DNA from: Protoeuglena noctilucae
Taxonomy: Eukaryota
Length of the DNA stretch: 64,000 nucleotides
Direction of reading: 5' to 3'
Assembly (NCBI GenBank): GCA_958009085.1
Contig: OY253675.1
Span: 62,001 to 126,000, forward strand
The notes beneath the pieces were generated by a model. The model saw only the letters and a list, made by a program, of their open reading frames with translations. It made no database searches and was not told the DNA's origin. Shown in pieces: positions 4,048-57,100 of this stretch (position 1 is its first letter; every line of letters begins with the position of its first letter). Made by a program: the position numbers and the translations under genes.

Positions 4048-6724
<2,677 letters not shown>

Positions 6725-23341: not shown

Positions 23342-24966
23342 TCAGCCAGGCGGGCTGCTGCTGCGCTTAGCCCGCAGCTCTGCCACCATGCGCTCCACCA
23401 GCCCCGGCTCCCCGCCCGTGTTGACCAGGTCCGCGCCGCGGTCGGCCAGCCGCAGCACGACCTCGGTTTCGACGCGAAATTGAGATGCCAGCACGCATAT
23501 CGGCGTCCTGCCCTCCCTATCCCGCGCCTCCAAGTCTGCCCCAGCGCCCAGCAGCACGTCTGCGCACGCCTTGTGCCTCACCCAGTGCAGAGGCGTCTGG
23601 CCATCCTCATCTGCAGCATTGGCGTCAGCCCCTGCCGACAGCAGCTGTCGCGTCACAGCTGCAGCTACTGCCCCTCCTAGAGAGCAGCACACCGCGGCGT
23701 GAAGGCACGTTGAACTATTCCAGCTCTTCGCGTCGACGTCTGCGCCCAGCTCAATCAGAGCGCGGACAGCATCGATGCGGCCATTACGGCAGGCCTCGTG
23801 GAGTGGTGAGCTACTGAAACCGTCGCCCTGGATGCTCAGCCCACGCGCCGCCAGCCACTGCACCACCTCCCCATTCGCCGCCTCGTGTATCGCAGTCCGC
23901 AAATCATTGCTGGCGGCAGCTACGTTGGCCCCCAGATCCACTAAAGTCTCCAGCACGGCCAGGTTGCCTCGACTTGCTGCGCGATGGAGGGCCGTAAAGC
24001 CCATAAGACCGACTGCGTTCACGTCCGCCCCTGCCTCCGCCAGCCGACGCACGATGCCCGGCGTTGGTTGGCCCTCGCACACAAATGCCAGCGTACGGTC
24101 CCGGCCAGCCCCCCCCACCTTGGCCGACGCCGCCGCCTCCAGCAGCGCCTCCACCACCATCTCGTGACCCCCACGCCCGGCATAAATCAACGCCGTAAAC
24201 CAACCTCCTTCTTCACCACCTCCCTCCGCATCCACCTCCGCCCCCGCTGCCAGGCACGCCTTCACTGCCTCCAGGCAGCCCCGCTTCGCGCAGTACGTCA
24301 TCAGCGGCCACGCTCCCTGAAGCCGCCGGTTGACGTCCGCCCCCATCCCCACCGCCACCCGCACCATCCGCGCCTCCTCCCCGTCCCCCAGCGCGTACGC
24401 CCACTCCACCTTGCCGTCCGCCCCACGCCCCACCGGCTGCCTCGCCACCACCGCCACCATCAGGGGCGACTGGTCGACATCCCTAGTATCTTGGACCGCC
24501 CACGATACCCCGTTGATGTCCGGCCCCTCTGCCACCAGCACCGCCAGCCACCACAGCCCCAGGCTCGCCAGGTGGTGCGCGTGGGACCCATCACGCGCGT
24601 ACACCACCAGCGGCCCGTAGTCGAGCGTGCCTTCCGGCATACGGGACCGGAAGTGAATGCATATGCCCTCCCGCCCGTCCTCCGCCGTGGCCCGGATGCC
24701 CCACGCCCTCCACACCTCGTCGCGCATCTCCCGCGACACCGCACGCGCCGCCGTGGCGTCGCGCAGCGGCACCAGCCGCAGGATCTCGCGATGCACCTCC
24801 CCGGGCAGGTCGCCCCACCCTGCGCGCGCGACCGGCCCACGCGGGATGCCTAAACAACCCAGCCAAAGCGACACCAAGCCAGACGGCCTCGCCGCTGCGC
24901 CTCACCCACAGGCGAACTCCTCAGGGTGGGATCCGACGCTCGCTCAGCATCTGCATCGCCCGGCAT
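23342..24966 (-). CDS. F-box + ankyrin-repeat protein (~9-10 ANK repeats)
   Basis: F-box 'WGDLPGEVHREILRLVPLRDATAARAVSREMR', then repeats such as 'FTALHRAASRGNLAVLETLVDLGANV', 'SPLHEACRNGRIDAVRALIELGADVDA', 'QTPLHW...LLGAGADLEARD'. One 1.5-kb exon; a probable 56-nt 5' intron (24850-24905) links it in phase to ATG 24966. Confidence 0.88.
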
Positions 24967-32400: not shown

Positions 32401-35400
32401 TGCCCCCCAGGCGCGGACGGTGCGGGTGCGGAGGGCGCCAGCCGCATGCGCCTGACCAAGGCGCCAGAGTTGGTGTTGCACAGGGAGGGGAAGGCGTATC
32501 GGGGGGAGGACGGGGGGTGGGAGTCAGAAGCAGATCTGAGGTGAGTGGAGTGTGGAAAGTGTTAGGAGAATGCATCTTACATGAGAAAATGGGGTTGTCT
32601 TTTATTTCCTTATTTTTAAATCCACTAGCTATACACACTCCACCCATCCCAGGTCCCTGTGGTCCTCTCACTTTGCCATGGAGGGTCTCTCTCTCTACAG
32701 CATATATAATTACAATTAAAACAATCATATTTCCTTTCCCCACAACCCAGGTCCCTGTGGTCTTCTCACTTTGCCATGGAAGGGCTGTCGCTCTACAGCA
32801 GCATGCCCGGTCTGCGCTTGGGCAGGGACGGCAGCGATGCCGACATACTTCGTTATTTCGGGGAACCGTCGATGGAGGATATTATGGAGGAGGCGGCTGT
32901 GAATAACAACGCCACGCCGTCGGTGGCGTCGGGTGAGGGTTGTGGAGGGAAGGGTGGGGGTTGGTGGTGCGGGTGGGGTGGGGAGTGGGGTGAGAGTGGG
33001 GAGTTGGGGTTGATGTCCGCGGAGATTAGAACTGAGCACGAGATGGAGCAGTCTCGATTGACGATTGATTATTGATATTAGTTATATTAGTTATAATTAA
33101 TAATTATCATCATTCCTATCTCCGTAGAGATCGAGCACGAGATGGAGCAGGCGGCGTTGATGCTCCCCCGCCGCCCGGACCTCCGCAACGACCGCGCCCC
33201 GTCCCAGCCACGAATGGGAGCTGCGGACGATGTTGCTATCGACACAGTTAATGTCACGGCTACCGATGCGGGGGGTGTAAGTGGTGGTGGTGGTATGGAT
33301 GGTATGGGTGGCGTGGGGGGGGGAGCGGGGGCGGGTGGCAGCGAGGGTGGGGCTGCGGTGGTGGATGCTACTGGTGGTGGTATTGGTGGTGATGCTGCGA
33401 TTGATACAGCTATGGGTGCCGATACTGCTGGTGGTACTGGGGATGCCGTCAATGTCGCTGGTGCGGCGGCTGTGGATGGGGCGGGGGGTGCTACTGGGGG
33501 AAGCGCTGGGGGTGCAGACAATGTCAGTGGTAATGGCAATGGCAATGGCAGTGATCCTGGCATCGCCGGCAATCGCGGCAGCAACGGCAGTGGCGGGGAC
33601 AGCAGCGGTGGCGACAACAACAACAATACCCCCGCCCCCGCCCCCGCCCCCGCCCCCGCCCCCGCTGTGGCCAAGAGCCACGACACCGGCGACTCCGACA
33701 CCGATTCCGACACGCAATCTGGCACCGGCCGCGACGATTCTGGCGGCGCGTCCGCCGCCCCCTCCCCCCCCCGCGTTCTGACGTTGGTGCGGTCGGTGTC
33801 CGTGCGATCGGAGGGCATTGAGAGGGCAGAGGAGCTCGTGTTGGGGTCGAGGGCTGCCAGTATTCGGCGCATGCGGTATAACATGGCGGAGGAAACGGTG
33901 GGGGAGGAGGTGGGGGCGGGGGTGGGTGCGATGGTGGGGGCGGTGGGGGTGGGTGCGGGGGTGGTGGGGAGGGGAGCAGGGGTGCGGTGGGGGTGGGGGT
34001 GGTGGGAGAGGGGAGTGAGGGGTTGGTTAAAGAGGGGAGCAGGGAAGTTGGAAGTAAAGATGTGGTTAAAGAGGAAAATGAGGGGCCGGTGGGGATGGCG
34101 GCGGTGGGGGAGGGGAGCGAGAGTGGGACTGGGGATGGGGATAAGGATGGGGATGGAGATGGGGATAAGGATGGAGATAGTGAGGGAGAGTTGGAGGGTC
34201 TGAGTGCGGAGGAGGTGGCGAAGAGGACGGCGTATTGGAAGCAGATGTTCCCAGACAGGGTGGAGGTAAGAGATGTTATGTGCTGTTTAGTAATAGTGAA
34301 TGGGAGGTGCGTGTTTGATTGTACATGAAAATGGCAAGCAGCTGGTCCCAATCAACCCTTTTCATATCATCTCTCACTTATCGCTTCCCCCAATCGCTTT
34401 CTCCCCCCCAGCGCCTGGGCCGCCCCGATGTCGACCGTGTGATGGACATGCTGGAGGAGAGGAGCAGCCGGGTGGAGATTGAAAGAGAGGTGAGGGATGG
34501 GATGTAGTGATATTATTGTATACATATATCATATGCAATGATATAAATAGTGTGGCAGTGGCTGTGCCATGGACATGCCCGTTCAATGACACCCACACAT
34601 GCACACACGTCAAACAACATCAGTCCCCATTCCCAACACTTTCCAATTCAATTCATCCAAACCCACCCTTCATTCCAACCCCCCAACCCCCCTCATCCCA
34701 CCCCCCAGGTCCGCTATGCCGAGGCGAGCGGTGCGGGGCGGGAGGCGGTGGCGAGAGGGCTGACGCGCGATCCCAGGAAAGGGGGCACTGGGCCAAAGAA
34801 AGCAGAGAAATCGACATCGCCGGGAAGGGAGAGGGGCGGCGTGGGAGAGGAGGGGGAGGGGGGTGCGGAGGGGGGTGGGTCGCGATTGGCGATGCACCGG
34901 TGAGGGGGGGTGGAGTGGTTGGGAGGTCGCACTGAAACGTGCGATACTACTGCGGGCTACCTGTTACAGTGTTCATTCTCTCTTTCTCTCGCACAACGTG
35001 ACCCTCACCTCCCTCGTCGCTACCCCCGGCATTCAATCGCATTCCTGCTCCTGGGCCGCACCCGCTCCCTCTCACTCTCTCTCTTGGCGATCAATCCCAT
35101 CACCTCTTTATCTACCCATTACCACTCTGTCATCTCTTATCCCTTTTACTAATCGCAGTGCCTCCCAGCGCGCCCTGCTCCTGGGCCGCACCCGCTCTCG
35201 CCTGGCCAGCGCATTGGAGGAGATCGCGACGGCAAAGGCGGTGATCGACGCAGAAAAGGAAAGGGTACTGATCAAAGAAAAGGAAAGGGAGAGGGAGAGG
35301 GAGAGGGAGAGGGAGACGGGGATCGTGCGAAACACGAACGCGGGTGGTGGTGGGGGTGGGGGTGGTGGGGGTAACAACAGTGGTGGTAAAGGTGGTAATC

Positions 35401-38400: not shown

Positions 38401-41400
38401 GGAAGGAGGCAACGAGGGCGACGGGTGGAGTCGAGAAGCGTTCAAACGCCCCGGCGGAGTCGGGTGGCGGGTCAGATTCAAATTCCAATTCAAATTCGGA
38501 TAGATCGGATACGGGCATCGGTGGGTCGGAGGGCGGGCGCGGGAGTGCGGTGGAGTGGCGGGAGCGGCAGGGGGTGGTGGATGTTAGGGAGTATGTGCAT
38601 AATCGCTATCAGGGTGCCATGAATCCACTCAAGACGGAGATGGGGAAGGAGGGTGCGGGGAGTGGGCATGAGTCTGCGGGGGGTGGGGAGGGGGGGAGAG
38701 GGGAGCGAGGGGGAGAGCGGGGGGGTGTCGTCGGATGCTGAGATCGTGGGGAGGGGAGGTGAGAAGATGAGATGGTATCGTTGATTGATAGATTAATTAG
38801 TTAAACACGGTGATTGGGGCTTGTGTTGACGGACTCTGGGGTGTGGAGCGTGCGAACATGTTGCCACGGCTCACCGGTACCCGCGCACCCTCACCACTCA
38901 CCCTCACCCTCACCTCACCCACACTCTCACTGCCACTCTCACCCTCACCCTCACCCCCCCCCCCGCAGCCGACGCCCCACCACCCCACCCCCCGAGTCAG
39001 TGCCAGAATTCACAGCCACTGAGATGGCCACGATGCGTGCCTTGCCACCCAAGAAGCCCTCTCTTCGATTCTTGGCGATGCGCTCCAGCCTTATGATGGG
39101 GGGGGCGGGAGACGAGGGCGGGGAGGGGGGCAAGGGGGCGGAGAGGGGGAGGGAGAGGGAGGGGAAGGTGAGGGGTGGGGGTGGTTGGGAGGGTGGCGGT
39201 GGGGGTGGTGATATGGGTGGTATTGGGGGTGGCAGTGGGGGTGGTAGTGAGGGCGACATTAAGGGTAGCAGTGAGGCTAGCATCAATGACAATAACAGCA
39301 CTCATCATTCCCCGCCACATCTCATCTCCTCGTCCCCGCAGCCCCCCGCAACCACCCCCTTCGGCATGATCCGCGTCGATGACTCTGGCGGCGATCTGAG
39401 TCAGCGGGGGGGGTGGAAGGCAGACGCGGCGGCGCACCGGGACAGCATGTTTGGCGGCGGGGCGGGCGGGGGGCGGGGGCGGGAGCGGGGCGGCGAGGGC
39501 AGGCGGCAGGGTGGGGGAGACGGGGAGCAGGCGAGGGAAGCCGGCGCGGGGCGGGAGAGGGACCGCGATCGCGAGGGAGGCGCGGACAGGGGTAAAGATA
39601 AGGATATTGATGAGGATAGGGAGAGAGAGAGGGAGCGCCGGGACCGGAGGGAGCGCCGGGCGTCGCGAGTGAGGGACATGTCGAGCGATTCCGGGTCCGA
39701 GGAGCGGAGCGTGGCGCGGAGGGGCGAAAAGCGGGACCGAAAAGACGGCAAGAGCGTTAATGTCATGGACGGGCGCGGCGGGAAGGCGGAGGGCGGGCGC
39801 GGCGGGGAGGAGAGCGACGGCGACCGGCGACCGCGCTCGCTCGCGCGGCCGGCGCCGCGACGACCGCGGAGCCGGCGATAATGAGCGACGAAATGACTTC
39901 GATCGCGATCGCGACCGGGCGCTGGGCCGCGGGCGCGCGCGGTCGGCGCGGGTGCGTGCGGAACGTCCGGCGGGGGCGATGGGCGATTTGACGGAGGAGG
40001 CTGCGGAAGAGGACCGACTCCGCGACGAGACGCGATCGTTCCAGGATCCGACGGAGCTGGAAGGGGACGCGGAGGCGGCGGACGGGTCGCCGCGGACGGG
40101 GGTGGGCGGGGCGGTGGTGCCGAGGACCTATGCTGACCAGGTGGGGGGTCACTGCGAGGGGATACATGGGGTGGTTGATTCCATGAATGGGTTGGTTGGG
40201 TTTGGTATGTTTGATTGGGATTTGTTGATACTGGGATGGCTGGAGAGGGGCTGTACAGCGATTTAGCAAGGCGGAGGGAGGCAACGTGCTGTGATGGTTG
40301 AGTGATGGGAAGTTGGCCCTTGGCTCGTGTCGAGTGCTTGGATCAATGCCCGATATCATCACAACACATGTAAATGACAATTAACAGATTAACATATTGT
40401 TAACATATCCGCATCCACCTCCCCCCCAGCTCGACCGCACCGGCGTGGGCGGGGCGATGCGCGACTGGATGCAGGCGACGGCGGGCGCTGCCAGCCAGGC
40501 AGCGGAGAAGGCCCGCCGCGCGCAGCAGGAATTGATGAAAGACAAATTCGCGGCCGTCGTGAAGGCCGCGCTGCGAGCGAGGCGCGAGGCCGCCAAAGAG
40601 GAGGCGGACGGGGCGCGCGGGGGTGGAGGGGGTCAAGCGGGGTTCTATTCGCGCGCTGCGGTGATCGAGATGGCGTCGCGGCACGCGCAGCAGATGCGGC
40701 AGCTGCAGGCGGCGTACGAGGATCGGATCACCGCCATGGAGGACAGGTGACGATTTGCGGTGGGGTTTCTGCTGAGGGTACAATTAGTAGAGGAGGGGGG
40801 TGATGGGCAGTGCATGGATCGCATCACCGCCATGGAGGACAGGTGAGGGGGGGAGGGGGGTGGTGTGTTGTTGTTTGTTGTTGTCACTGTTGTAGGAAGG
40901 GTAGGGGAGTGAGTGGATGGGATCACCGCCATGGAGGACAGGCGAGGGGCGATGAGGGCGGGTGTTAGGGGTGTAAGGTGCAATCAAAGTGAGGTAGTGA
41001 AACTGATCGAGTCACCGACATGGAGGACAGGCGAGGGGGGGTCGGTGTCTTGGGGTGTTGGGGAGTGGTGGTGCGAGTGGTCGAGTGAGCTAGTGGCATA
41101 GGAAAGTAGAAGATAGTGTAGAGGGGTAGCGATGGGGAGGGCAGCGAATGGATCGAATCGCAGCGATGGTGGTTAGACGAGGGCGCACATGGCGCCTCCA
41201 TCCCACACCCTCCCTGTCACCCACCCACACGCTCACTAGCAAACCCTGCCCATGGCTCACCATCCTCATTCTCCCAATAACCGTCCACCCCTGTCTTTCA
41301 AATCCTACCCAACCATTCCCCAACCACTCCCCCCCTGCAACGCAGGCACAAGGAGCGCCTGACCCGCGCCCACCCCACCCGACCCCGTGGCCCCGCCCCC

Positions 41401-44400
41401 GCCGCCACCCGCACCCGCGCCGGCGACGAAAAAGGGGACGCGGATCGAGACGTGGTGACGCGGGGGTTGCTGGATTTGATGGGCGCGCAGATGCGGGGGG
41501 TGGCGGACCCGCACCTGACGGAGCAGGCGACACGCCAGACCGAGGACTTTTTGGAATCCGCGGGGCTGTCGAAGGACATGGTGGCCGCCGCGAGTCGGAG
41601 GTCGATGCGGTCCGCGCTGGGGATCGAAGCGGGGACCTCCCGTCGGTCAGGGATGGCGAGCGCAAGCCGGGTGAGGGGGGGCGGTATTATGGGGGGGGAG
41701 GGTAGGGGGTGGGGTGGTGTTTGCTGTGTGGGGAGGTTGGCGGTTGATGCTGGTGGGGGAGAGAAGTGCAACGGAGAGAAAATAACATTACTGCACAGCT
41801 GTAGCTATCTGTCACAGCTAGTACCACCAACAACCCCGCTCTCGCTCTACCTACCACCCCACTCTCACCTTCACCCCTCCCTCTCTCTCTCCCCCCTCTC
41901 AGCTCTCGGCCCACAGTGCCTCCCTCCCTCTCTCTCACTCTCACTCTCATCCCCCACTCACCCTCACCCCTCTCTCTCCCTCTCCCCACAGCTCTCGGCC
42001 CACAGCGCCTCCCGCCCCGCGTCCCGCGCCGACCTCACCGCCCCCTCCACCTCCCAACGCCCATCGCGCAACGAAGCGCCGCCACCCCCGCCCTTCGCCA
42101 GTGCAGCCGCGAGGCTAGCGGCAGAGAGCGGGGCGCTGACCGATTGGGGAGAAGGGGCGGGTGCTGGGGGTGTTGCACTCGCAGCTGCGAGGGGGGGGTC
42201 GCCAGTACCGGTGCCAGTACCGGTGCCAGTGTGGGCGTCGGAATCGGGTGTCGCGGGCCGCCAGTCGCCGTCTGCGGGGCTGGCGACGGCGGCGGCGGCG
42301 GGGCAGCTGTTTGCGGGTGGGGAGGCGGGCCGCGCGGCCCTGCTGGCGAGGCCGGGGTCTGCGGTGGGGGAGGCGAGGGGGGCAGGGGCGGGGGCGGCGT
42401 TCGCGAGGCCCATGGTGAGGGGTGGGGGGTGATGGTGTGGTGTGTGGGTGATAGTGTGGTGAGGGTAATTGCGTGGGATGGTTGTGATGATGGGTGAAGA
42501 GTGGGTGTAGAGGGGATGTAGGTGGTTAGAGTGGATAGTTGGGTGTGGATAGGGTGGGAGAGGTTGGGTGGGGTGGCAGTGTGGGTAGAGTTTGTGGTGG
42601 GGGGCCATGTGACAACAAGTGGAGATGAAGACAATAGGATGGCAGTTGTGTGGTCATTATCACATGCATCTCTGCCACGCCTTGCCACCCCACTCCACCG
42701 CTCACACCACCCCCACTACCCCCCCACCCACTCCCCCCATCACCCATCCACCCTAACCCTCCTTACCCCTACCCCCCACTCCCCCCCCGCAGTCTGCCGC
42801 ACCCACCCCCTCCCGCCGCTCCCGCCTTGACCCCTCAGCGACCGCCACCGCCCCCACCGCCACGCCCGCCCCCTTCGCCCCTCCTCCCTTCCTCGACCCA
42901 CTGCCAGAATCCGCGTCCCTCGCCAGCCTGGGTCGAACGGGCGACCTCCGGCGCGCTGGGCGGGACGCCTGGGCCGAGGAGGGCTCGGAGGCACGCGGCG
43001 GGGGTTCGAACCCTGGCGCCGGCGGCGCCTTTTTGGGTGCGGCGGCGGGGATCGAAGGGCGGCTGTCGGAAGTGGTGCCGGAGGCATCGGAAGGGTCATT
43101 GGCGGATGCAATGGAAAGAGCAGAGGGGGCGAGGGGGGTAGGTGGGCGCGGGGCGGGGGCGGCGGTGGCGGTGGTGGAGGGCGGGGGTGGGGGACGGGCG
43201 GCGGCGTTGGCGGAGCCGCGACAGCGCGGACAGAAGGCGCATCAAGCACGGCCCGTGTCGGGTGAGTTGGAGTGAAGTAGTGGGGGGTAATAGATGGGAC
43301 GTGGATGTGGGTATGGATTCCGTATGGGTGATTGTGATGGATTAGACACTCTTGTGACACTGCCACCTCTCTCCGCACCCCCCTCCACTTCACCCCAACC
43401 CCGCAGCCATCGTAGCACAACGCTCCACCCCCACCCCACCCCCTCACTCCACCCACCCCTACCCCACCCCCGCAGCCATCGTAACACAACGCTCCGTCCC
43501 CGACCCCATCCGCCGCCATTTGTCATTCACTCCCTCACCCCCACCACACCCGCAGCCATTCTGGCACAGCGCTCCACCCCCACCTCGGTTCCCGACCCCA
43601 TCCGCCGCCATTCGCCATTCACTCCCTCATCCCCGTTACCCCCGCAGCCATTCTGGCACATCGCTCCACCCCCACTTCGGTTCCTGACCCCATCCGCCGC
43701 CATTTGTCGTCCGCCCGCGCCGACCCCGCCCACCGCCGGGGATCACGGCCCGCCACAGGGTCGACGGTTCAAATCTCGCGGCCGGCGTCGGGGGCCGTGG
43801 GGGCCATCGCGGGAGCGGCAGGTGAGGGGGGGGGGGGCTGTGAGGGGGAGATGAGATGAGTGGGAAGTGGATGAGTGGCGTTGTTATGTGAGTTGTTCAT
43901 AATCGTTGTTTATGGATTCAATTACTATCATAACAGACACTCAATTGTCTCCTGCAATGACTCACCATCACCCACTTATCCCCCTCCCCCGCAGCCCCCC
44001 ACCCCGCCCGTGCACGGAGCGCCACCACACAACACCCAAGCAACAACCAAAACCAACCCACCCTCGCCATCACCGCCACCGCCACAGCCACCGCCGCTCA
44101 CCCTACCAGCACTGTTAGTAATGCGGAGAGGGGCAGGCAGCAGGAGGGCTTTGCGGGTGCAGCGGTGTTGCGCAAAGGGGGGAGACCGGCGACGGCGAGG
44201 GTGGGGGCGGTGGGGGGTGCGACGGATAAGGACAGAGAAAGGGATAAGGATGGATCGCTGTTCGTGGCGCCGAGGCCGTCGCTGATGGGGGTGTCCAACC
44301 GGAGCCTGCTGATGGTGAGGGGGGGTGGGGGTGGGGGTAGCATTGGGGTAGCGATGGCTGTTGTTGTATGCTCTCGCTTACCCTTTCTCAACTCTCACCT

Positions 44401-44730
44401 CATCCCCCACTCACCTACATCTCACCTATCACTCCCATCACCCCCCAACTCACCCCACTCACCTATCCCACCTATCTCTATCACTCACTGCCCCCCAACT
44501 CCCCCATCCCCCAGGACCCCACCGCCCCCACCCCCGCTTCCTCGACCGTCGTGGCCGGTCGCGACGTGCAGCCCGTCCGCAACCATCTCTTCATATACCC
44601 ACCCAAAGACGCGGAATCGGCATCGCGGCTGACGTATGGGGATAGAGCGAGGGCGGTGAGGGGGGAGCATGTGTTGAGTGTGACGCCCTATGGGGGGTGG
44701 AGCGTGGAGGGGCGGAGTGGGAGGGGGTAA
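29476..44730 (+). CDS. very large multi-exon hypothetical protein (helical/coiled-coil segments separated by Gly/Ser/Arg-rich disordered regions); may be more than one gene
   Basis: Chain of codon-biased exons with compatible phases (e.g. EKARGLMQWVETGQLMSK; ETRLFLDLFKDNAML; SLWSSHFAMEGLSLYS; DREAAARAVLRKRQQDFDDG; AQQELMKDKFAAVVKA; NHLFIYPPKD). No recognisable domain; a few apparent frameshifts at G-runs. Confidence 0.55.
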
Positions 44731-45121
44731 TTGATGAGTGATGGGTGTGATGAGGGCGATGAGCGGACAAGCCACTTAATCTATGCTGAAGATAATAATT
44801 TTACTTGGTTTACTGTTATTGTGAGTTTTTAGCTGTAGCAGGGCTGTGATAGACTAGCTGGTTAACAGACGTGATCGTGGCTGAGAGATGTCATCCCTGT
44901 GCCGGTGAAAGCGAAGTAACAGCACTCACTACCAATCCTATCAATTATTGCCACGGTCAGAGTCTCAGTATCCCTCTCTTCAATCGCGGAACACAGCCAT
45001 CTACAACCCTATCTAATACGCGTACCCACCACCACCCTCACTACCACCCTCCCCCATCTCACCACCACCCCACCACACCCACACCCTCCCTACCACACCA
45101 ACCCACCCCACCCCTCCCCAT

Positions 45122-48100
45122 TCACTTGCGCCCCTTTTTCGCAAACTCCTCCCTCAGATTCCGCCTCACTCCCCGCGCTTCCCCACTCTTCCCTCCATCC
45201 CCACCCCTCCACTTCCCACCACCCCCGCCCCTAACCCCACCCCCCGCACCGCCACCCATCGCACCAACATCGCTATCATTATCCAATTCCACTCCCACTG
45301 CGCTATTCCCCTCCTCATCTGTCGGCTCGTCGTCCCCGCCGCCACCCTTCCCGGCATTCCTGACACCGCCGCCTCTGACACCACCTGTTCTGACACCGCC
45401 GGCTCTGGCGCCAGTCTTGGCGTTTGCCGCGGGGGCGGTGCGCCCGGCCTTGGCAGCAGCGCCGCGTTGCTTGCCTCCCCGTTTGCGCACAGCAACGGGG
45501 GCAGTGGCAGCGGGGGTGGCAATGGCAGCGGGGGTGGCGATGTGGGCGGGGGTGGCGGCAGCGGTGGCTGTGATGCGGGGGGCGGTGCGGTCGAGTGGCT
45601 GCGGGTGAGGGGGAGTGGTTGGTTGATGGGAGTGGTTAGTTGATGAGGGTTAGGGGTTTGAGTAACATGCCACCACCCTATGCCATCTTCGTATCACCAT
45701 GCTCCGCTTACCACCCACACCCCTGCATGTCTCCCACCTATCGCACCAATCATTCCCACTCCACTATAGCTACTATTATTAATCCCTTATAGATGCACCC
45801 CCTCACCTGCGCCACTGCCGTGACCTGGCACCCCGTGCGCCTCTCCACCCACCGTCCACCACTCACCACTCACCACCCACACCCCACCATTACTCTAATC
45901 AACAATTACTCAAACTGTCATATCTACTTCTCACCTGCGCCAGCGCCGTGACCTGGCACCCCGTGCGTTTCTCCACCCACCGCCCCACCGTGAACACCCA
46001 CGCCGCCCCCCTCTCCCCCCCCGCCAACGCCTCCTCCACAATCACGCTCTCCGGCAGCCATGCCGAGAACAGTCCTCGCCCGCTGTGGCCCAGCCGCAGC
46101 TGCTTCAAGCGGCCCAGGTAACGTAACGCGGGGAATTCGAACTCGTCCACGCAGCCCGCCTTGAACTGCGGATTTGAATGAGATGGGGTTGATTTGAATG
46201 TGGGATTCGGTGTGCTGCAGTTACCATCATGCATATATGCATGATGGCGATAGATGATGACTTGATCATAACGTCAACATGACCATTATTGTTATCATAA
46301 CAGAACACATCCCTCCCCCCTCACCCTCCTCGGCCCCATGCGCGGCTGGATGAGACCCGAGGTGCCCCTCTCTCCCGTGATCTCGAAATGCACCTGAGAT
46401 GGAAAAGGCATAAGGATTAAGTTGATTAATGACTGTCACCAACCGTCGCCGCTCATCACAACCCATCACCACATCCCAATCCACTTATCCATTCATTCAA
46501 ATCCCCCACCCCCATCCACCCCCCACCTGCGCCCCCGTCCCAACCCACCTACCACAACACATGACCATACCTAAATTCATCCATTCAAATCCCCCACCCC
46601 CCATTCAACCCCAATCCAACTCCCCACCTGCGCCCCCGTCCCCGCCCCCGCCCCATCATCACAACATGCCAATCCATCGATCTCTCATCTCTCATACACC
46701 CAAATACCCCCCACCCAACCCAACCCCCCACCTGCGCCCCCGTCCCCGCCCCGCACTTCCTTGCCGTGGCAAACGTGACCCTGTACCCCCGCAGCCTGGC
46801 GGCCACCAGCTCATCCGCCTGCGTAGATGCGTCCGCCACAGTCACTGTCGTCTGCGCGTAGTGCACGCGATCGGAACCCAGCACGCTTTGCAGCGTGGCG
46901 TGGCAGGGGAAGCGCTGGGTGAGCGGGCGGCTGTCGTGGACGTGGGAGACGGTGATGGCCTCCAGGGGCCAGCGAATCTGGGGGTGGGAATGATATGGAA
47001 TAAACGTGTTACTGATGAGTGGTGGTTTAGATTTGTACTGCAACATATGGATTACACCCATATCTGGGAGACGGTCCAAAGCTCCTCCAACCCTTACTCG
47101 CATGCGCATCTCACCACCCCCGTCTCTCATAACAGCCAATCATATATAGCCATTCCCACACCCCATCTCACCTCGTGCACCCCCCTCATGAGCACGTGCA
47201 TCTTTGTCAGCACGCCCATCTCCCCCGCCGCCTCCGTTTGAAACGCGTCCGTCTGACCGGGGCGGAAAAGCCTGCCATTCTCGTCCGGCCACCTCCCCGT
47301 GCAGTTTCCGGCGAACAACTGGCGCCACCCCACCCCGTCCGGGTATCGATCCGAGTATAACAGGACATCCAGATTGTCAGAAACGGACTGACCGGGCTCG
47401 TCGCCCGTCTGCACCTCGAACGTGACCGGATAGGCGAACCCGGGACCTGTGATATTCCTATCGTAGTCCCCGGCATTCTGGCCATTTCTGGCAGTGTCGC
47501 CAGAGAGGGCGGAGGCGAGGGCGTTGGGCCTCTGTGCCGCGGCTGCCAGGAATGCGTCGGAATCGAGTGCCAGAGGAAGGAAGGGCTCGGATGGGGAGGG
47601 GGAGAGGAGCTGGGGGGGACAGAGAGGGGGGTGATGGGTGAGGGGGTGAGATGGGGTGGAGTTGGGCGAGGGGAGCGATGACTGGGTGACGATAGTGGTG
47701 TGAGTGATAAGTAAAATGGAACGGGGTGAGGGGTCTGAAGAGAGCTGGTGCAATCTCCACTCGCTTAGTTGATAACAATACACACACACTTATATACACG
47801 CACAACCCACACCCCACACTCGCCTTGTCGCATCGGAACACGGCCGTCTCCCTGGTAGTCAGGCACAGGATTTGAATATCGACCAGATGCCACTCGAAGG
47901 GACCCCAGAGCTTGAGATGCAGGCGGTGCATGGGGCTGGGGGGGGAGAGAGTGGGTGAGGGAGTGAATGAGGGACTGGGTGAGAGGGTGAGGGAGCGAGA
48001 GGGTGTTTACATGAAAGGGACGGGAGGAGTAGAGGTGCGGGCAGTGCATGGGTCAACCCCCACCCCATCCCATCTCACCACCCCCCACCCCATCCAATCC

Positions 48101-51100
48101 CTCACCTGACCGCGGCGTCGTCTGCAATCGTCAACAGCACAACACAACAGTGCACCCATCCCACCACACCCCATCCATATCCCACTCCCCACCATCTCAC
48201 CTGCCCGCGGCGTCGTCGGCGAATCGGCAATACAAGACAGTCCCACCCCATCCAACCCCACCCCATCTCACACCCATCCAATTCCCATAACATCCCAAAT
48301 CGCAATCCGTCACCTGACCGCCGCATCGTCTGCGAATTGGAACTCGAGCGGCCGCCGGTGGCTCAGCACCCCATCCCCCGGGGCTTCGTGCCACTCGGTC
48401 TGCTGTTCGTCTCCCCCCGACACCATCATGCTTATTTGGCGGGGGGGCACGCGGGTCTGGGGGCCCGAGCGGATGCTCACGCGATACCTGAGAGGGAGGG
48501 GGGGGGGGGTTGAGAGTAGCAATGGGGGTATGGGTGAGGTGAGAGATGGGGTGCGGGTGGGGGTGGCAGTGGGGTGGCAGTGGGGGGGGTGGCAGTGGGA
48601 GTGGGGGTGGCAGTGGGGGTGGCAGTGGGGGTGGCTTAGCAGTGGGGAAGCGGGGGCAATCACGCGCTGTCCCCGATCCCGATATGGAGTTCCAACAAAC
48701 ACACACACCCATTCATTGCAATATCAACCATATACAAACACAACCACTCCCCAAAGCCCCTCACCCGTGCTCTGCCGCCCCCTCTGCCCTCCGCACCAGC
48801 CGCACCGCCCCCCCCCTCCCCTGCCCCGCCACCGCCGGCGCCAATCCACCCGCTGCCGGGCCGAAGAAGTACTGGGAGCCGTCTGAGTATATCAACACCA
48901 TCTTGACGCACTGCCAGGTTAACCCCACGCCGCCCTGCGATGTGACGAGGGGGGTGTTGGGGTGGGGGGTTGTTGGGATGGGTGTTGGGGTGTGGGGTGG
49001 GGGCAGAGTAGCATGGAGTAGCATACAATACAATAGTACTATACTGTATGCTACTTATATATTCCATACACTATATGCATTAACAGTGGATAATTACAAC
49101 ATGATTATGACATGACACCCCATCTCCCCTAACAACCCCATCACCCACCCCCCTCTCATCTCCCTTCCCCCCTCCCCCCCCTTCATCTCACCTGCCCCGC
49201 CCCGCCCGTGTCCATTTGAATCTCCACGAACTGAGGGTCGCCGACGTCGTGGTAGGGGATTTCGAATTCGTCCCTCGCCCCCCGCTGGAAGGGGAGCGTG
49301 CCCGGTTTCGCGATTAAGGTGCTGTAGTCGGTGCGATTCGAACTCCCGACCACGGAGATGGCCACCGAGTTGGGCGGCGCCGAGGCGTCTGGGCGAGTGC
49401 CGGTGGTGGCCAACACGCGCGTGACTTGCGGTTTCCTGGCGCCAGTGTCGGCGGCGGGGGGTCCGTCCCGGGACTCCATGCGGCGCTCCAGGCTGTGGTC
49501 GGGGGAGAGCCAGTCCTGGGGGAGAGATGGGGGGTTTTATAATGGTAATTGTGATAATAGTGATAATACTATGATATACGATGATGGCTAGTGAGTGTGC
49601 ATCCATGCGGCGCTCCAGGCTGTGGTCGGGGGAGAGCCAGTCCTGTCATGTCCTGTGATTGCGAGATTGCTAAAGCATACACACACCCATCATAACCAAA
49701 TTACATTACCAAATAACACCAACTCATCGACCATCCCACCCCTCACCCGTAGATGGAACCACCTCGTGTGTTTCTTTGTCCTATCGGTCCCCTCGTGTGT
49801 GGCCTCTATATGCGATAAGTGCCACGTGTCGTCCACCTTGCCATCGGGGCTGAGCAGCGCAGTGCCCGGCTGAAGGCGAACCGACATGGCCTGCGAGTGA
49901 GGGTGGGGGTTGGGGAGGGGGTGATGATTATATAATTTGTTTGTTTATTATTACTATTATTGATCAATACTCTTAGGTAAAGAGTCCCTGCTCCGACCCG
50001 GTCGCATATCTTACCATATCCACTGTCCATATCTACCATAACTATCAATATCCACCATTACATATGAATACAATTACCCAACCACTCAAACTCGCCTTCA
50101 TCCTCCCCACGTCCCTCCCCTGCACCCCCAGGAACGCCTGCTCCGACCCGGTGGCGAATCCCCGGAACCCCGGCCTGGTTAACTCCAGCCATCCCGTGTC
50201 GCCGTTTTCACCATAAACATTCAAGAACACGGGGGAGTTGGTGCCGGCGCCGGGGATGTTGGTCGTGAAGACCTGAGGGGGTGAACAGTATTACTTATTG
50301 CTTGCATAACAAAACCTGATACTGATGGTAGCAAGCGGCACTGATAGTAAGGCTGCCTTAAGTTATTGCAAGACCATACCATGTCAAAAGGTACAGCTCG
50401 CCCGGCATGTGCAAGCACATACACCCATCACCCCACTCCCATCCCACTCCCCATCAATAAAACTCGCCTTGAACGTGTACGCGCACACCCCCTTCCTGGC
50501 CGCAGGGTCCCCCCCCTCCGTCAACACCCTCTCGCTCCTCACATCGCCCGCCCCCTGCCCCAGCCAACCATCGCCATGCTCCGGCACGTCGGCCCAGAAC
50601 ACAAAGGGACGCGGGAGGCCGTTCGCGGTCGCTGTCACGCGCCGCAGTCGCCAGGAGTGGTTGCCGGGGCCCGGGCGCAGCCCCACAGTGAGGTGGGTGG
50701 GGGTGCCGATGGGGGAGGGGGAGATGACGGTGACGGAGCTGCGGGAGTGGGTGGGTGTTTATTATATATGATTATTACTAGTACATATATATTAGATGCG
50801 TATGTCAACTGATAGCGTGGGTGAGGTGGGTGGGGGTGCCGATGGGGGCGGGGGAGGTGACGGTGACGGAGCTGCAAAGGGAGTGGTGATGAAAGGGAGT
50901 GGTGATGGGTGGTTGGTGGTTAAGGAGTGGTATTCATCATCATCAGTGGTATTAATATTTATTAATTATCAGTTCCTACTCCTTCCCTCTCACGGCGACG
51001 CCCCCCCGCGAACCCCTGCACATCCGCATCATCAATATCACCCGTATTGATATATATCATTATATTATGTATAACTATACAGTACATTTACCAACCCGCG

Positions 51101-54100
51101 ACTCACCGCGCCGTCCCCCCCGCGAACCCCTGCGCGTGTGCCACGTCCTGCGCCCCCGTCTGCCCCAGCGTGCCCTTTAAGTTGACATATGCCTGGCTGG
51201 TGGTGCCGGAGAGGGTCTCGAATTCCAAGGTATATTCGGTGGGCTTGGAGCCGGCCTGGAGGCGGGCCTGGGTGTCAGGGGAGGGGGATGGTGGAGTTAG
51301 ATATAGTTATGGTTATCATGATTATTACATTCCAGCGTGTACTCGGTGGGCTTGGAGGCGATAGTAATAATCACAACCCACAACTACCACCCACCCATTC
51401 CCCCTCACCTCTCTTGGCTTCTCCCCCCCCAGCCACCCCTTGCAGTGGAAGTACCACTCACTCATGATACTACAAACATCCATAATACTAGTAATAGTAA
51501 CTTGATAATCATAACCCCCTCACCTCCCTGGGCTTCTCCCCTCCCAGCCACCCCTTGCAGTGGAAGTACCACTCCTTATCCCCGCTCGCCACCCTTATCC
51601 AATCCAGCTGCCACGCGTCCGCGCCCGCCCCCCCCTCCAGCCCCACCACGCACTCCCGCAGGTCGCCCAGGGGGGGGAGCTCCCTGCGATTAGAAAGAGA
51701 TGGGTTGGGAAAATGTTATTATAATAATATGCGTATTGTTTATTACATGCTCTGCAGCTGAACTGCTATCCATTGCCTGTCCAAGTTGTCTTGCCGCCCC
51801 CACCCCATCGTGCTATTTACTTACTGCACTATTAATTGTCAGTGCTATTCATCATAGTAATAGTAACCCCATCCTCAACTACTCGCCAACCACCCCACCG
51901 CACCTGTCGAAGTTATCGATTTGTCCCGGCCGGAACGGGGGCTGCCTATCGCTGTCGATCAGCTCCACTCTCCCCTCACCTCGTGCAATAATGGTATTAC
52001 TCAGTATTTACTAGTAATACTAGTAATACTATTACTGCAAGATACCACTCCCACCGTACCTGTCGAAGTTATCCACTTGTCCCGGCCGGAATGGTGGTTT
52101 TTTATCGCTCTCGATCAGCTCCACCCTGCCGCTGCTCCCCTGCGCCCCCGTCAGCGCCACCACCACCGTCGCCACCGTCCCCGCCTCCCGGTCATCGCCC
52201 GTCTTCACGCTGATGCGGTACCTGGGTGGGGATTATGAATGGGGATTGTGGGTGAATATGGGTTTATGGGACTATAAACGACGATCAGTGGTCGTCGCCC
52301 GTCTTCACGCTGATGCGGTATCTGAATGGGGGGGATTATGGGAATAGATATGGGATTATAAACGAGGATGAATGATTGTGGATGTTTGAAAGAGATAATG
52401 ATGAACGGTGCATTGTTCATCCCAGCGACCGTGTTGGCACAAACAGATTATACACATTCAGTACATCCACATATAGTTATAGCTTATACATCACAACCAC
52501 CCCCTCGCCTCTGCTTCTGCGCTTTGGGCGCCTCCTTGGCCCTCCCCATCTCCAGCGTGCGCCTCTCCCTGCCCATCACCGCCCTGCCAGTAAACCACGC
52601 CTCGTCAATGATTTGGTTATTCCGGCTCTGCCGCACCCGCACGCACTCGGGCACCCAGTCGGGCGACTCGCCCTTGCCGTCGATGTCCAGGATGACCTGG
52701 GAAGGGAGGTGGGGGGAGTGAGACTTATTAAGTAAAGTAACAGTTCAACTATCATCATTAATAACTACAATTATCAGAGATATATCGCAATAGCTACTTA
52801 CCTGGTAAATTCGCAAACTCGAATTTACTCATAATTCACTGCTATATAGCAAATGCTGTCAGTAAAACACATCGCAACTGACAACCCATCGCATCGGACA
52901 TCGCATCGCTCCCCCCACCCTTTCCATCCAATCTCGCCTTGTTCATCTTGCCCACTGGCTTGGACGACATTTTGAAGAAATCCTTCTGCGCCCTCCGGAA
53001 GGGGACGGACGCGTCTTGCGGGTGCAGCTCCATCTGACCGGTGCGGCCACCCTCGCCCCTGGGGGGAGAAGAGGGAATGATGATAAGAGAATGATGATCG
53101 TGGTTTGGTGCACTGATGATCCCCGATGGATCACGCAACATCACCCCGACATGACTGGTACACCACCACCACCCGCACAAGACAACCCACTACACCGCCT
53201 TTACCACAAGCACTACCAGCCCACATTACAACCACCATCTCCCAACACTCACTCCACAGTTAACGTGACCGCGCTGGTCGTGGTGGGCCGCCTCTCGTCC
53301 GCCGTGTGCACCTCCACCTCGTAATCCGCCGACTCGTCCGCCTGACGCGGGCGGTCTGACGCCAGTAAACGCTTCGTCAGTCCGTCGGCGTCGGACAGCC
53401 ACGCGTGGCAGGGGAAGTAGTAGGTGTGGTTCTGGACCTGAAAGAAGAGAGAGGGAAGTGGAAAGGGTTTTATATTTAATAATAAATAGGAGATGATACG
53501 GTGCGTGTGGCTCTGGGCCTGAAGGGACAGATGCGAAAAGAGGTGCTCATTCTGAACTTAAGCAAGCCCAAGCGCATCCCTATTAACACCCACTCGCCTT
53601 CACCACCACCTCCTGCAGCTTCCAGGGCTTGCGGCTCCCCGCCGGCAGCAGCTGCACCGTCGCCGCCTCGAGCGGACCCACGGGGGGGCCGTCCCTCACA
53701 AACTCGTCCCTCCCGCCCCGCTCGAATAATTTCCCGGAACTGTCCTCTAATTGGAAAGGGCCCACCGAGTCGCGGCCGGAGTGCAGCGTCAGCTTGACCT
53801 CCCCATCCGTGGCCGCGCCTGCGGTTGATGGATAATGTTTATGCAGTTGATGATATCCACCGTGGTCAGTCGATGGATAATGGTGGTCAGTCGATTGATA
53901 GTAATTGGGTGAAAGTGATTATCGGTTTTATTGGTAGGATTGATTGATGGATAGATGGGGAGTGTCGATGAACTGACAGTAGGTAGCAACTAGTCCTTTA
54001 CGGAAACCACCGTCAATAGATAGTAACTAAATAACAACTAAATAGCTAAGCATACACATAACAAGCGCCTCACCCCTCTCGTCCGCGGTGAGGATGCTGA

Positions 54101-57100
54101 TGAAGTACTGCACGACCTTGGGCCTCGTATCGATCGGACCGGCATGCACCTCCAGCGTTCTCTCTAGCGTGTTATCCGATCGGCGCAGCCACTGCCCGCA
54201 CAGGAACTGGTACACCCGCCCCGTCGATATGTCTTTCACGGCCACTCGCTCCAGCAGCCAGTCCGGGCTCGTGCCCAGGCCATTGTGGCCGATCACCAGG
54301 CGGCTGCGATTGGATTGGGTGAGAGGGAGAGGGAGCGTGATGGTGGTGACATGGATGTCACATTATGACTGTTATGTTGTTATTATGATGCTTTTATAAT
54401 GATGTCAGAAAAAAGTACTAATAAAATTATTACAATGTTTACATTATAGTTGTATATTTACAACTATAATGAATTATTGCCAACACATCCATCCCATCCA
54501 CTCACGTGAGTTCCCCCACGTCAGGGACGTTGTCGAGTCGGAATCGTGCTGTGTTGCCCCTCCGGAAGTCCCCCTCATGGCAGGGCAGAGAGAGGGTGCC
54601 CGTGGCCCCGCCTGTCCCAATGAACTTCACGTACACGTCCGCGCTCGTGCCTGCGAGATATGGTGATAGTACTAGTATTGATAGTAGTATTGATAGTTAT
54701 GGTAGTAGTGATGGTGATATTAATAGTAATAGTAATAAAATAGAAATAAAATAGAAATAGAAATAGAAACAGAAACAGAAATCAAACAACACTCGCCTGC
54801 CCCCTGCGCGTCCCGGGTGACGATGTGTATCTCGAAAGCCTTGGTCTGCCGGTTGCCCTCTTGCGTGACCGGGATGCGCACCGTCGTCCCCGCCAGCACC
54901 GCAGAGGCAGGGGCGTCAAAGAAGTAACGGTCGCCCGAACGCAGGTCTGGGATGATAGGATATGAAGGGGAGAGAATAGTTGCAAGAGCAGTTCATGTCA
55001 AGCATTTATTGTATTTCTATTTGTAATAGTTAAATCGATGAAATTATATACAAACTGTTACGAGTTGCATGGCAGTCGAACACTGCCATAACCCTATAAC
55101 ATGCCAATAACTTCAATTTTGTAACAATAACAAGTACATTGCCACACACCCCAGACCCTCTCACCGGTGATGCGTCCGTGGTCAATGCCCCACCCGCGCT
55201 CCCCCCGCCCCCGCGGCAGCTTGATGGTCAGGAACTGCAGCCGGCCCAGCGCCCCCGCCTCGGTCAGCAGATGCTGCGAGCTGCTGTTTCTGGCGAATCC
55301 CCCGGGGGGGGGCTGCACGCGGTGGTGGGTGCCGGGGCCCCGGTCGCCCTCCAGCTGCGGGCGGGGCGATTTGAATGGGGGTGGGGATTTGAAAATTTGA
55401 ACGAAGATTTGGAAATAGCAGTGAGTGGGATTGTGGACGAGAGTGGCTGGAGTGATGGGCAACCCTTGGTGGTCTCTCTCATGAGCGCGACGGTCGGCAG
55501 TGAGAGGCGTTTATCATAAAATAAGTAACATAATGATGAAAGTATTAATTATAACACCCATCAGTATATTATCCCACCTGCACGACGACCTCCGCGTCCC
55601 ACTGCGACCCCTGGGCGTCCTTGGTCTTGAACGCCACCTCGTACTGATAAGACTCGAGCTCGGTGGCCTGGGAATCTCGAATGAGATGTAAACTATTGTG
55701 AGCAATAAAGTCATTATTGATAGTTGCATCTGCAATATCTACAGTTGTCCTTATAATATGATGTAAATCTAATTTCAATTACTATAAAATTTACATACTC
55801 ACGCATAATTATACTGATAATTATCATACATTATCACCACTTCGCCTCCCTTCATGGCCCTCCCCCCTCTCCCCTCGCCTGTGCGTAGAGGTCTGCGACG
55901 GTGGTGTGGTCGGCCCCCCTCGTCTTGCTGAGCCACCTCTGGCATAGAAACGTCCACTCCCGCCCCGTCGCCATGTGCAGCACGCGCACCGACTCCAGGT
56001 ACCAGTCGGGGTGGCGGCCGGAGCAGTCGTGCCACACACGCAGGATCTGGGGGTGGGGTGGGGTGGGTGGTCAGGGATGAGGGTGAGTGGTGGGATGGTG
56101 AGGGTGAGGGTGAGAGGTGATAGATGGGGAGTGGTGCTGGCACATCAACCTTTCATCATCCCATCACCGTCTCGCCTGTATGTCTCCGATGTCTTTGGGC
56201 ACCTCCACTCGGAAAGTGTCTGCCATGCCACGCTGGAAGGGGGGCTGGCCACTGGGGGTGGAGAGGGTTGAAAGTTGGTGGTGTTACACAGTAGCGATAC
56301 ACAACACGAAAATCATATGCCTCTGAGTTGGGCATAGCAATCGACCACATCACTCCTCAACCCTCAATCGCTTATCTCGCTCATTCCTCTCACCTGACGG
56401 GGCTCGCGAGCGCGATGGACCCCAACACGCACATGCAACAGCAACCCAGTCAGCATTACTACCCATCTCCAGTGCCACTCTTCTAACCTGACCGGGCTGG
56501 CCAGGGCGATGGACCCCGACGTCCCCTCGTCCCCCACCATCTCCGCATAGACGCGGGACGAGGTGCCCGCCTCCGCCTGCTGGCCCGTGCGCACAGTGAA
56601 CTCGTATACTAATGCGCCGCGGCTGCGGTGAACATGACGAATAGCTATAAGTATAGTAATAAGTATATGAGTAACTATCGACAGCCGATCGTACTGGCTA
56701 TGCAGCTTTGTCTCGCACCCACCATACCAACAACAACAAACATCGCACATCGCACAGCGACGCACCCCACCACCCCACCCACCCCCCTCACCTCCCGCCC
56801 CCTCCCCCCACCCCACCCCTCCTCGGCGACCACCTCATTCCACTCGCGCTTGCGTGATGCGGCAGGGGCGGCAGCGTGAGGCTGAGGTCCAACCCACCGT
56901 GCGCGTCAGCCTGCCTGACCGCGTGCAGGGCGCAGTCGCGCCAGGCGTCGCTCAGGCGGCGCATCCACAGGCGGGCGTCCGCTGCGAGTGAGGGAATGTG
57001 GAATGAGTTAGTGACAAAAGGGGTGAGGTAGAGGATGATGCATGGCGCATGCACAGGCGAGCGTCTGCTGCGACTGAATAGAGCTTAAATAGACATGGGG

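Follow-up and report, generated by a model that had tools for sequence, protein, structure and literature searches.

Why does an intron carry four further copies of the exon end at which it begins? The question was raised by a locus of Protoeuglena noctilucae (NCBI GenBank assembly GCA_958009085.1, contig OY253675.1, positions 62,001 to 126,000 of the forward strand). This whole stretch of 64,000 nucleotides was analyzed, is called the window below, and is numbered from its first letter. A putative coding exon on the plus strand ends in a block of 31 nt at 40720, consisting of 27 nt of exon tail and GTGA, the beginning of the donor, and four further direct copies of the block lie downstream on the same strand. 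We refer to this array as the ladder. With moderate confidence, we consider it a degenerate minisatellite spanning the exon-intron boundary, of the type named "mirage", and a tolerated by-product of local duplication. Taken by itself, the five-copy ladder is ordinary and probably neutral.

The exon-tail block at 40720-40750 reads GGATCGGATCACCGCCATGGAGGACAG followed by GTGA and closes an open reading frame. This first copy contains the authentic 27-nt exon tail and the donor GTGA, has its predicted cut between 40746 and 40747, and is the sole copy contiguous with the open frame. Copy 2 (40816-40846) has a pseudo-donor, AG/GTGAG, and differs from the 31-mer at 40720 at one of 31 positions. Copies 3 (40915-40945) and 4 (41004-41034) both have the pseudo-donor AG/GCGAG, with two and five differences, respectively. 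Copy 5 (41150-41180) is decayed, with nine differences by the same hand count and TTAG/ACGAG where a donor would stand. Against the 30-mer at 40721, copies 2 to 5 showed 1, 2, 4 and 9 mismatches. All copies lie on one strand and in register, with start-to-start distances of 96, 99, 89 and 146 nt. The 27-mer had four matches at no more than three mismatches, and none was found in any of 100 dinucleotide-preserving shuffles. Copy 5 alone is near the noise floor (9 of 30 mismatches, where an unrelated 30-mer on the other strand scored 10), but it is backed by its register and by an 11-nt left flank that resembles that of copy 2, being equal to it at 9 of 11 positions. From copy 1 to copy 5, the Arg codon position reads CGG, CGC, GGG, CGA and CGA, and the donor dinucleotide reads GT, GT, GC, GC and AC, the last of which is dead.

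The likeness between units is confined to the core and short flanks. The four spacers (40751-40815, 40847-40914, 40946-41003 and 41035-41149; 65, 68, 58 and 115 nt) are G/T-rich. When they and the 100 nt 3' of copy 5 were compared as five segments following the copies, none of the 10 pairwise local alignments was significant (shuffle p 0.09-1.0), and no copies of the spacers were found elsewhere within the 64-kb window. The intronic copies are also alike in about 11 nt before and 4-6 nt after the block, and the mean column identity of the aligned units is 48%. Tandem Repeats Finder did not report the array. The original prediction, made from the letters of this stretch, had described five direct copies at about 40721, 40817, 40916, 41005 and 41151, spaced by about 90-145 nt with dissimilar spacers and a varying Arg codon; the measurements agree with it on each of these points.

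The ladder is a real feature of the DNA. Four public sequencing runs, two of them of RNA, were aligned to positions 38500-58499. Contig X5-9, from short reads of a marine metagenome in a separate study, covers 40104-41714 (1611 nt) with 0 differences and 0 gaps, and spans all five copies and every spacer junction. At the contig level, all five copies were therefore retained, with no collapse to a single one, and the earlier claim that the ladder is not an artefact of a diploid assembly is upheld. Contig X4-2 (5111 nt, from run X4, which is labelled with the organism) covers 39224-44342 and shows no difference inside the ladder; its differences all lie outside, namely 7 letters at 39818 and 1 at 43826. 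Other repeat families of the window are likewise covered by contigs X5-10, X5-11, X5-13 and X5-14. An exact scan of JGI metagenome contigs for the 21-mer ladder core returned 0 loci, and thus neither a second allele nor a relative. At 39814-39833, a 7-nt unit, GCGACCG, occurs three times in the window and once fewer in contigs of all four runs, both RNA runs included; either a microsatellite of variable length lies in coding-like sequence here, or the window is misassembled at this point.

All four extra copies lie inside a single intron. The upstream coding exon (40430-40746, plus strand) follows an acceptor, cccccccag/ctc, at 40429/40430; it lies in an open frame of 40385-40750 and ends GAT CGG ATC ACC GCC ATG GAG GAC AG. 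The boundary at copy 1 was assigned from frame and motif. The intron (40747-41345, plus strand, 599 nt) is G-rich in its 5' half, where the extra copies sit, and C-rich in its 3' half, and ends in caacgcag. Between the end of the last copy and the acceptor lie 165 nt, and the intron end, ccctgcaacgcag, is unrelated to the block. The downstream coding exon (41346-41670, plus strand) has an open frame and is matched by RNA contigs X9-25 (41343-41669) and X7-18 (41333-41555). The alignment of X9-25 begins at the acceptor, given three ambiguous letters (CAG ends both exon and intron), and stops one ambiguous letter before the next donor at 41670/41671.

The reading frame favors one of the repeated donors. 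Joining 40746 to 41346 gives GAC AG/G CAC AAG and keeps the frame as MEDR HKERL, the AG and the G forming an Arg codon. The first in-frame stop of the upstream frame is the TGA at 40748-40750. Because this TGA follows donor 1 in frame, splicing from donors 2-4 would leave a stop codon in the mRNA. Only the joint of 40746 to 41346 keeps the frame, and we infer that the exon-contiguous donor 1 is the spliced site. In two acceptor families only, those at 43392 and 49475, RNA contigs among the 30 aligned pieces that were listed (1430 more exist beyond them) are consistent with splicing at the exon-contiguous site. RNA contig X9-26 aligns to 42792-43260 and to 43991-44313, and the 171 letters between correspond to an exon at 43648-43821, ambiguous letters allowed. 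As this gap length fits the exon, the acceptor copy adjoining the exon in the 43392 family appears to be used, and not the three upstream ones. RNA contig X9-29 aligns as far as 49514, the authentic acceptor of the 49475 family, and then continues elsewhere. Three other RNA contigs (X7-17, X7-19 and X7-23) are colinear through introns and say nothing on site choice. Metatranscriptome contigs that are colinear through whole introns at 40095-40704, 41896-42414 and 45728-46075 represent either abundant unspliced RNA or carry-over of DNA.

The ladder has many counterparts in the window, which has a G+C content of 63.6% and reads as intron-dense eukaryotic sequence. A scan for direct repeats with a length of 22 nt or more, an identity of 80% or more and a spacing of 30-400 nt yielded 37 pairs, against a control mean of 0.3 pairs in 20 bands of equal width at 1-20 kb; a stricter filter retained 22 pairs, against 0 in five control bands. 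The 37 pairs form 22 clusters and 21 families, since those at 51894 and 51947 belong to the same repeat. Families were classified by reading in context, that is, from frames, splice motifs and, for a minus-strand gene at 45.9-57.6 kb, PLAT-domain matches, rather than from annotation. On this reading, ten families repeat an exon tail with its donor: those at 12851 (three copies), 16675, 35512 and 40720 (the ladder, five copies) and, on the minus strand, those at 45802, 48095 (three copies), 51400, 51894, 56388 and 57205 (three copies). Seven repeat an intron tail and exon head at an acceptor, at 2079 (three copies), 32648, 41879 and 43392 (four copies) and, on the minus strand, at 49475, 50688 and 52190. 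Two consist of an exon segment 16-18 nt inside the acceptor (35044, and 51222 on the minus strand), one is internal to an intron (12647), and one lies at a putative gene start (58039). Thus, 19 of the 21 families are exon-derived, with the extra copy read in the adjoining intron, 3' of donors and 5' of acceptors, on both strands. They span the window from 2079 to 58169 (for example, 35512/35612, 43392-43703, 48095-48333, 49475/49602 and 57205-57459), and their copies are spaced 36-156 nt apart. The ladder gene itself has, in its next intron, an acceptor-side repeat (41879-42017, plus strand), in which a 50-nt block of 24 nt of intron tail and 26 nt of exon head occurs at 41879 and again at 41968, 86% alike.

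Association with introns was also measured by composition. A rule using composition only, a G-rich arm and then a C-rich arm, delimited 64 stretches, and 62 of these were taken as putative introns (two at 62.5 kb, 81 and 31 nt long, were left out). The exon-contiguous copy overlaps an edge of such a stretch in 11 of 21 families, compared with 22% of random intervals (binomial P 0.0025). An extra copy is contained in 17 of the 62 putative introns in the 64 kb, and these are longer (median 362 nt, n=17) than the others (239 nt, n=45; one-sided Mann-Whitney p 0.036). A donor-like hexamer was present in 9 of 21 cores, compared with 26% of random windows (p 0.07), but this motif occurs too widely and does not capture GTGAC donors, and the measure was dropped. 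Introns throughout the window share a strand-symmetric build of G/T-rich 5' arm, A+T-rich center and C-rich 3' arm (e.g. 34900-35158, 41671-41991 and 52660-54560). The centers often contain words resembling TACTAGTAATA (3614, 37083, 50773, 51483 and 52009). Both GT and GC donors occur, two of the five donors read being GC. A G+C content of about 64%, dense introns and frequent GC donors bear a resemblance, and no more than that, to features described for the haptophyte E. huxleyi (PMC4028052); Pelagomonas, with 0.45 introns per gene (PMC9481584), seems a poor fit. Predicted folding of the 599-nt intron and of a 332-nt intron at 35538 was no better than that of shuffles (z -0.05 and +0.79); on these predictions, the G-rich and C-rich halves would pair through composition only.

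The ladder resembles several systems known from other genomes. The nearest are the amphioxus mirages, repeats of exon-intron boundaries that leave splicing undisturbed and from which, it has been proposed, new introns may arise (PMC3087553, PMC3902484). As in mirages, the direct-repeat units include an exon edge and a splice signal, 5' and 3' boundaries are both affected, units range from tens to about 160 bp, and many copies retain AG/GT signals. In the published descriptions, mirage units are length-polymorphic and resemble one another from end to end (81-100% in BflGb6; PMC3087553, PMC3902484), whereas here only the block of about 31 nt and about 15 nt of flank are alike, the spacers are unlike, and no polymorphism was seen between two DNA sources. 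The host also differs, being a GC-rich marine protist-like genome instead of a cephalochordate, as does the density of 17 in 62 composition-defined introns in 64 kb. The ladder consists of head-to-tail direct repeats whose first unit spans the boundary and whose splice signal is reiterated in the intron, but it lacks the likeness along whole units that characterizes mirages and minisatellites.

Minisatellites that begin with a monomer spanning an exon-intron boundary are known from human genes and include the 37-bp variable number tandem repeat of F7 intron 7 and those of IFI6-16, CBS, LMNB2 and PDGF (PMC1557585). In F7 intron 7, five to nine identical donors are present, of which only the one furthest upstream is reported to be used (PMC1557585). 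Both there and in the ladder, an authentic donor is followed by a row of near-identical intronic pseudo-donors, and upstream-only use is what the frame requires here. The F7 units are described as 37 bp, contiguous and identical, with 4 exon bases (PMC1557585). The ladder copies, in contrast, contain 27 exon bases in decayed units of about 90-146 nt, and their donor choice is predicted from the frame. Local duplication that reiterates a splice signal is likewise a feature of intron gain by tandem duplication of an exon segment containing AGGT (PMC3265369, PMC4974935). That model takes the GT of copy 1 as the start of the new intron and the AG of copy 2 as its end (PMC3265369, PMC4974935). The ladder intron ends at the unrelated acceptor at 41345 and its copies lie inside a pre-existing intron, and we rejected this origin.

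Introners, which form multi-copy families with target-site duplications of 3-9 bp (PMC9860276), also have short direct repeats at intron edges that are able to supply splice sites. Unlike introners, the spacers here are unique and the repeats are 22-75 nt. An introner or transposon-derived intron does not match the window, in which no multi-copy spacer family was found and repeat length is variable over that range. Recursive splice sites, or ratchet sites, are juxtaposed acceptors and donors preceded by a pyrimidine tract; the copies read CAG/GTGAG, but exon-like, purine-rich sequence precedes them, and this candidate was rejected as well. No paper on boundary-spanning repeats in haptophytes, pelagophytes or other algae was found in the literature, although subscription journals and supplements may contain one. 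The ladder thus belongs to a known kind, the decayed boundary-spanning array, and is unusual mainly for the many similar cases at nearby splice sites.

We propose that four head-to-tail copies of the last 27 nt of the exon and the first 4-5 nt of the intron were placed in the 5' part of the intron, separated by unrelated G/T-rich spacers of about 60-115 nt. The source was most likely error-prone local DNA duplication, through template switching in replication or through the repair of breaks with filler DNA. Intronic units already present were then probably duplicated further, and every event would add about 100 nt to the intron. The exon-contiguous donor would be spliced and the downstream pseudo-donors would leave with the intron. 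The ladder may persist because its pseudo-donors are removed in this manner and are harmless.

Two layouts among the families bear on the mechanism. The first is whole-unit tandem duplication of 50-100 nt, as in the 52190 family, whose spacer is homologous to the flank (z 6.1); whole-unit tandem homology is also evident at 45802, 12906/12955 and 43461/43549. In the second, which is that of the youngest families, the block is duplicated and the spacer is not. A search of the window with 17 spacers of at least 30 nt returned only short (up to 26 nt) low-complexity intron matches, with no sign that the spacers are copies of nearby DNA. The second layout could be produced either by insertion of a spacer between the copies of a staggered break or by insertion of a short templated patch into the intron. 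Short stutters of block ends beside some copies (35512, 16675 and 49475) would fit template switching driven by microhomology.

Several observations weigh against a boundary-spanning minisatellite that arose by local duplication. The same five copies occur in X4 and X5, without length polymorphism, although contigs drop rare variants. The gene models are our own reading of frames and motifs and not annotation. No ladder joint is present among the 15 best-supported of 52 joints, all of which derive from high-depth DNA repeats. In the 49475 family, the core is identical at 44 of 44 positions, yet the 83-nt spacer has no match in either flank (p 0.35 and 0.39). The families at 35512 (97% alike), 51400 (95%) and 51894 behave in the same way, with an unduplicated spacer. 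Because the spacers of these youngest families are unduplicated, simple tandem duplication cannot be the sole process. Several donor-side copies also stop exactly after GTGAG, at the start of a G run, which suggests breakpoints at the edges of G runs and hints at a targeted breakpoint. These features could reflect a copy-and-insert process associated with splice junctions, in which blocks straddling a donor or acceptor are re-inserted 50-150 nt away in the intron together with unique spacer DNA, often breaking at the G run after GTGAG. Such a process would act genome-wide, affect about a quarter of introns, add about 100 nt per event and be a main engine of intron growth. We regard it as a tentative and somewhat unlikely proposal.

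Strictly polarised growth of the ladder is likewise unlikely. Under this explanation, each copy was made from the exon copy and inserted beside the exon, older copies were pushed deeper, and distance equals age. The original prediction had described a decay graded with distance and suggested polarised, repeated addition next to the exon, and within the ladder the gradient is present: there are 1, 2, 5 and 9 differences at 96, 195, 284 and 430 nt. The states are nested, with CGA in copies 4-5, C at donor position +2 (GC or AC) in copies 3-5 and GAGGG after the donor in copies 2-5. The unrelated spacers also favor this view. In the families at 35512, 45802, 51400, 51894 and 57205, moreover, the most distal copy is followed by the intron-typical G run and the authentic donor by atypical sequence. 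Four points would fall into monotonic order by chance in 1 of 24 cases, however, and gene conversion from the constrained exon copy that weakens with distance predicts an equal gradient, so the gradient does not separate the two.

The flanks tell against addition from the exon. An 11-nt left flank resembling GGGCAGTGCAT is common to copies 2, 3 and 5, and a GAGGGG right flank is common to copies 2-4; the exon copy has neither. Because these flanks are shared by intronic copies and absent at the exon, at least some intronic units appear to have been copied from one another. In the 43392 family, units 2 and 3 similarly have a common tail that the exon lacks. Divergences in the other five multi-copy families of the window, counted by hand, follow no consistent trend. 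The nearest copy is the least diverged at 43392 (4 of 61, versus 7 of 49 with a deletion and 4 of 36 with a truncation), and the order at 57205 is trivial (1 versus 2 differences). The families at 2079 (2 and 2) and 12851 (5 and 4) are flat, and that at 48095 is reversed, with 9 differences near and 3 far. At 48095 and 12851, the intronic copies keep synonymous states that the exon has since changed, so these copies are old and were not overwritten by the exon. Graded decay therefore stands for the ladder and is no consistent trend elsewhere, and polarised addition is possible for the ladder but is no general rule in the window.

It is improbable that the repeated donors are functional, either as decoy or back-up binding sites for U1 or as regulated alternative donors that send transcripts to decay. 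Pseudo-donors 2-4 do retain usable GT or GC motifs, and several authentic donors are off consensus (GTGAC, GTAAG, GTTAG and GTACG) while their copies read GTGAG. High intron retention has been described (PMC4028052) in one GC-rich haptophyte, which may not be of the host's group. A hand count over 16 donor-side copies, however, gave differences from the authentic site at about 9% of positions in the splice motif (-3 to +5), compared with about 11% in the remaining, exon-derived part. Since the motif has thus been preserved no better than other parts of the copy, there is no sign of selection on the pseudo-donors. U1 binding would also give no reason to keep 27 exon-derived bases, copy 5 has lost its donor, and acceptor-side and exon-internal copies show a like pattern. 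Any use of donors 2-4, finally, yields the in-frame stop described above.

We also think it quite improbable that the spacers are inserted mobile elements, introner-like or retro-elements, with the blocks as long target-site duplications. The core-spacer-core arrangement of the youngest families, with unique spacers mostly of 55-85 nt, would suit such insertions. The window also includes a reverse-transcriptase reading frame of 564 codons (59373-61064, plus strand; RVT_1 domain, E 3e-23), a retro-element that adjoins the repeat-bearing genes. Against this, the 17 spacers searched gave no more than the low-complexity matches noted above and have no common termini by eye. The blocks, at 22-75 nt and variable, contrast with the 3-9 bp duplications given for introners (PMC9860276). 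Two families have exon-internal cores, for which the insert would need to carry the acceptor. An assembly artefact in which two diverged haplotypes were stitched in tandem would look like unique spacers between identical cores, but it is barely credible and is excluded for practical purposes, because the independent metagenome contig X5-9 carries the whole ladder unchanged, and further families are covered too.

Other features of the window lie near the repeats. The minus-strand gene at 45902-57600 is long, has several PLAT/LH2 domains and bears 10 of the repeat families. Just upstream of its apparent start codon, in minus-strand sense, the repeat at 58039-58260 forms four head-to-tail copies of a 62-74-nt unit beginning GCATGTGACGCA, and is read as a repeat of the gene's 5' end and not of a splice site. 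When exon 2 of the ladder gene and one exon of the PLAT gene were used as protein queries for longer proteins, neither had a match, and no transcript-derived protein that would confirm the junctions was found. Further minus-strand genes, at the positions listed, are a beta-tubulin gene (4643-6184), one intron of which is open in frame by chance, and an ankyrin-repeat protein gene (23345-24901). A C-rich simple repeat resembling CACTGCCACCCC occupies 48505-49171 inside an intron (core at about 48540-48650). Contig depth there is 7451 in X4, compared with about 100-300 elsewhere, and 161 in X5, and it attracts most of the false joints listed; it is a high-copy dispersed repeat of this genome.

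The ladder itself is, we infer, a neutral product of local duplication in DNA, and it is the density of boundary repeats, together with the core-spacer-core layout of the youngest families, that deserves follow-up. In GC-rich algal genomes, pseudo-sites of this type will lead gene predictors and spliced aligners astray. If the pattern is genome-wide, natural arrays of splice sites that are identical or nearly so would be available in their hundreds, and with them it could be tested whether a protist spliceosome selects among tandem donors or acceptors by a first-come rule or by strength. The arrays would also be a visible record of intron growth. Should the copy-and-insert process prove true, the boundaries would be more than sites of an occasional minisatellite: arrays of pseudo-splice sites, and possibly new splice sites, would be seeded as introns grow.

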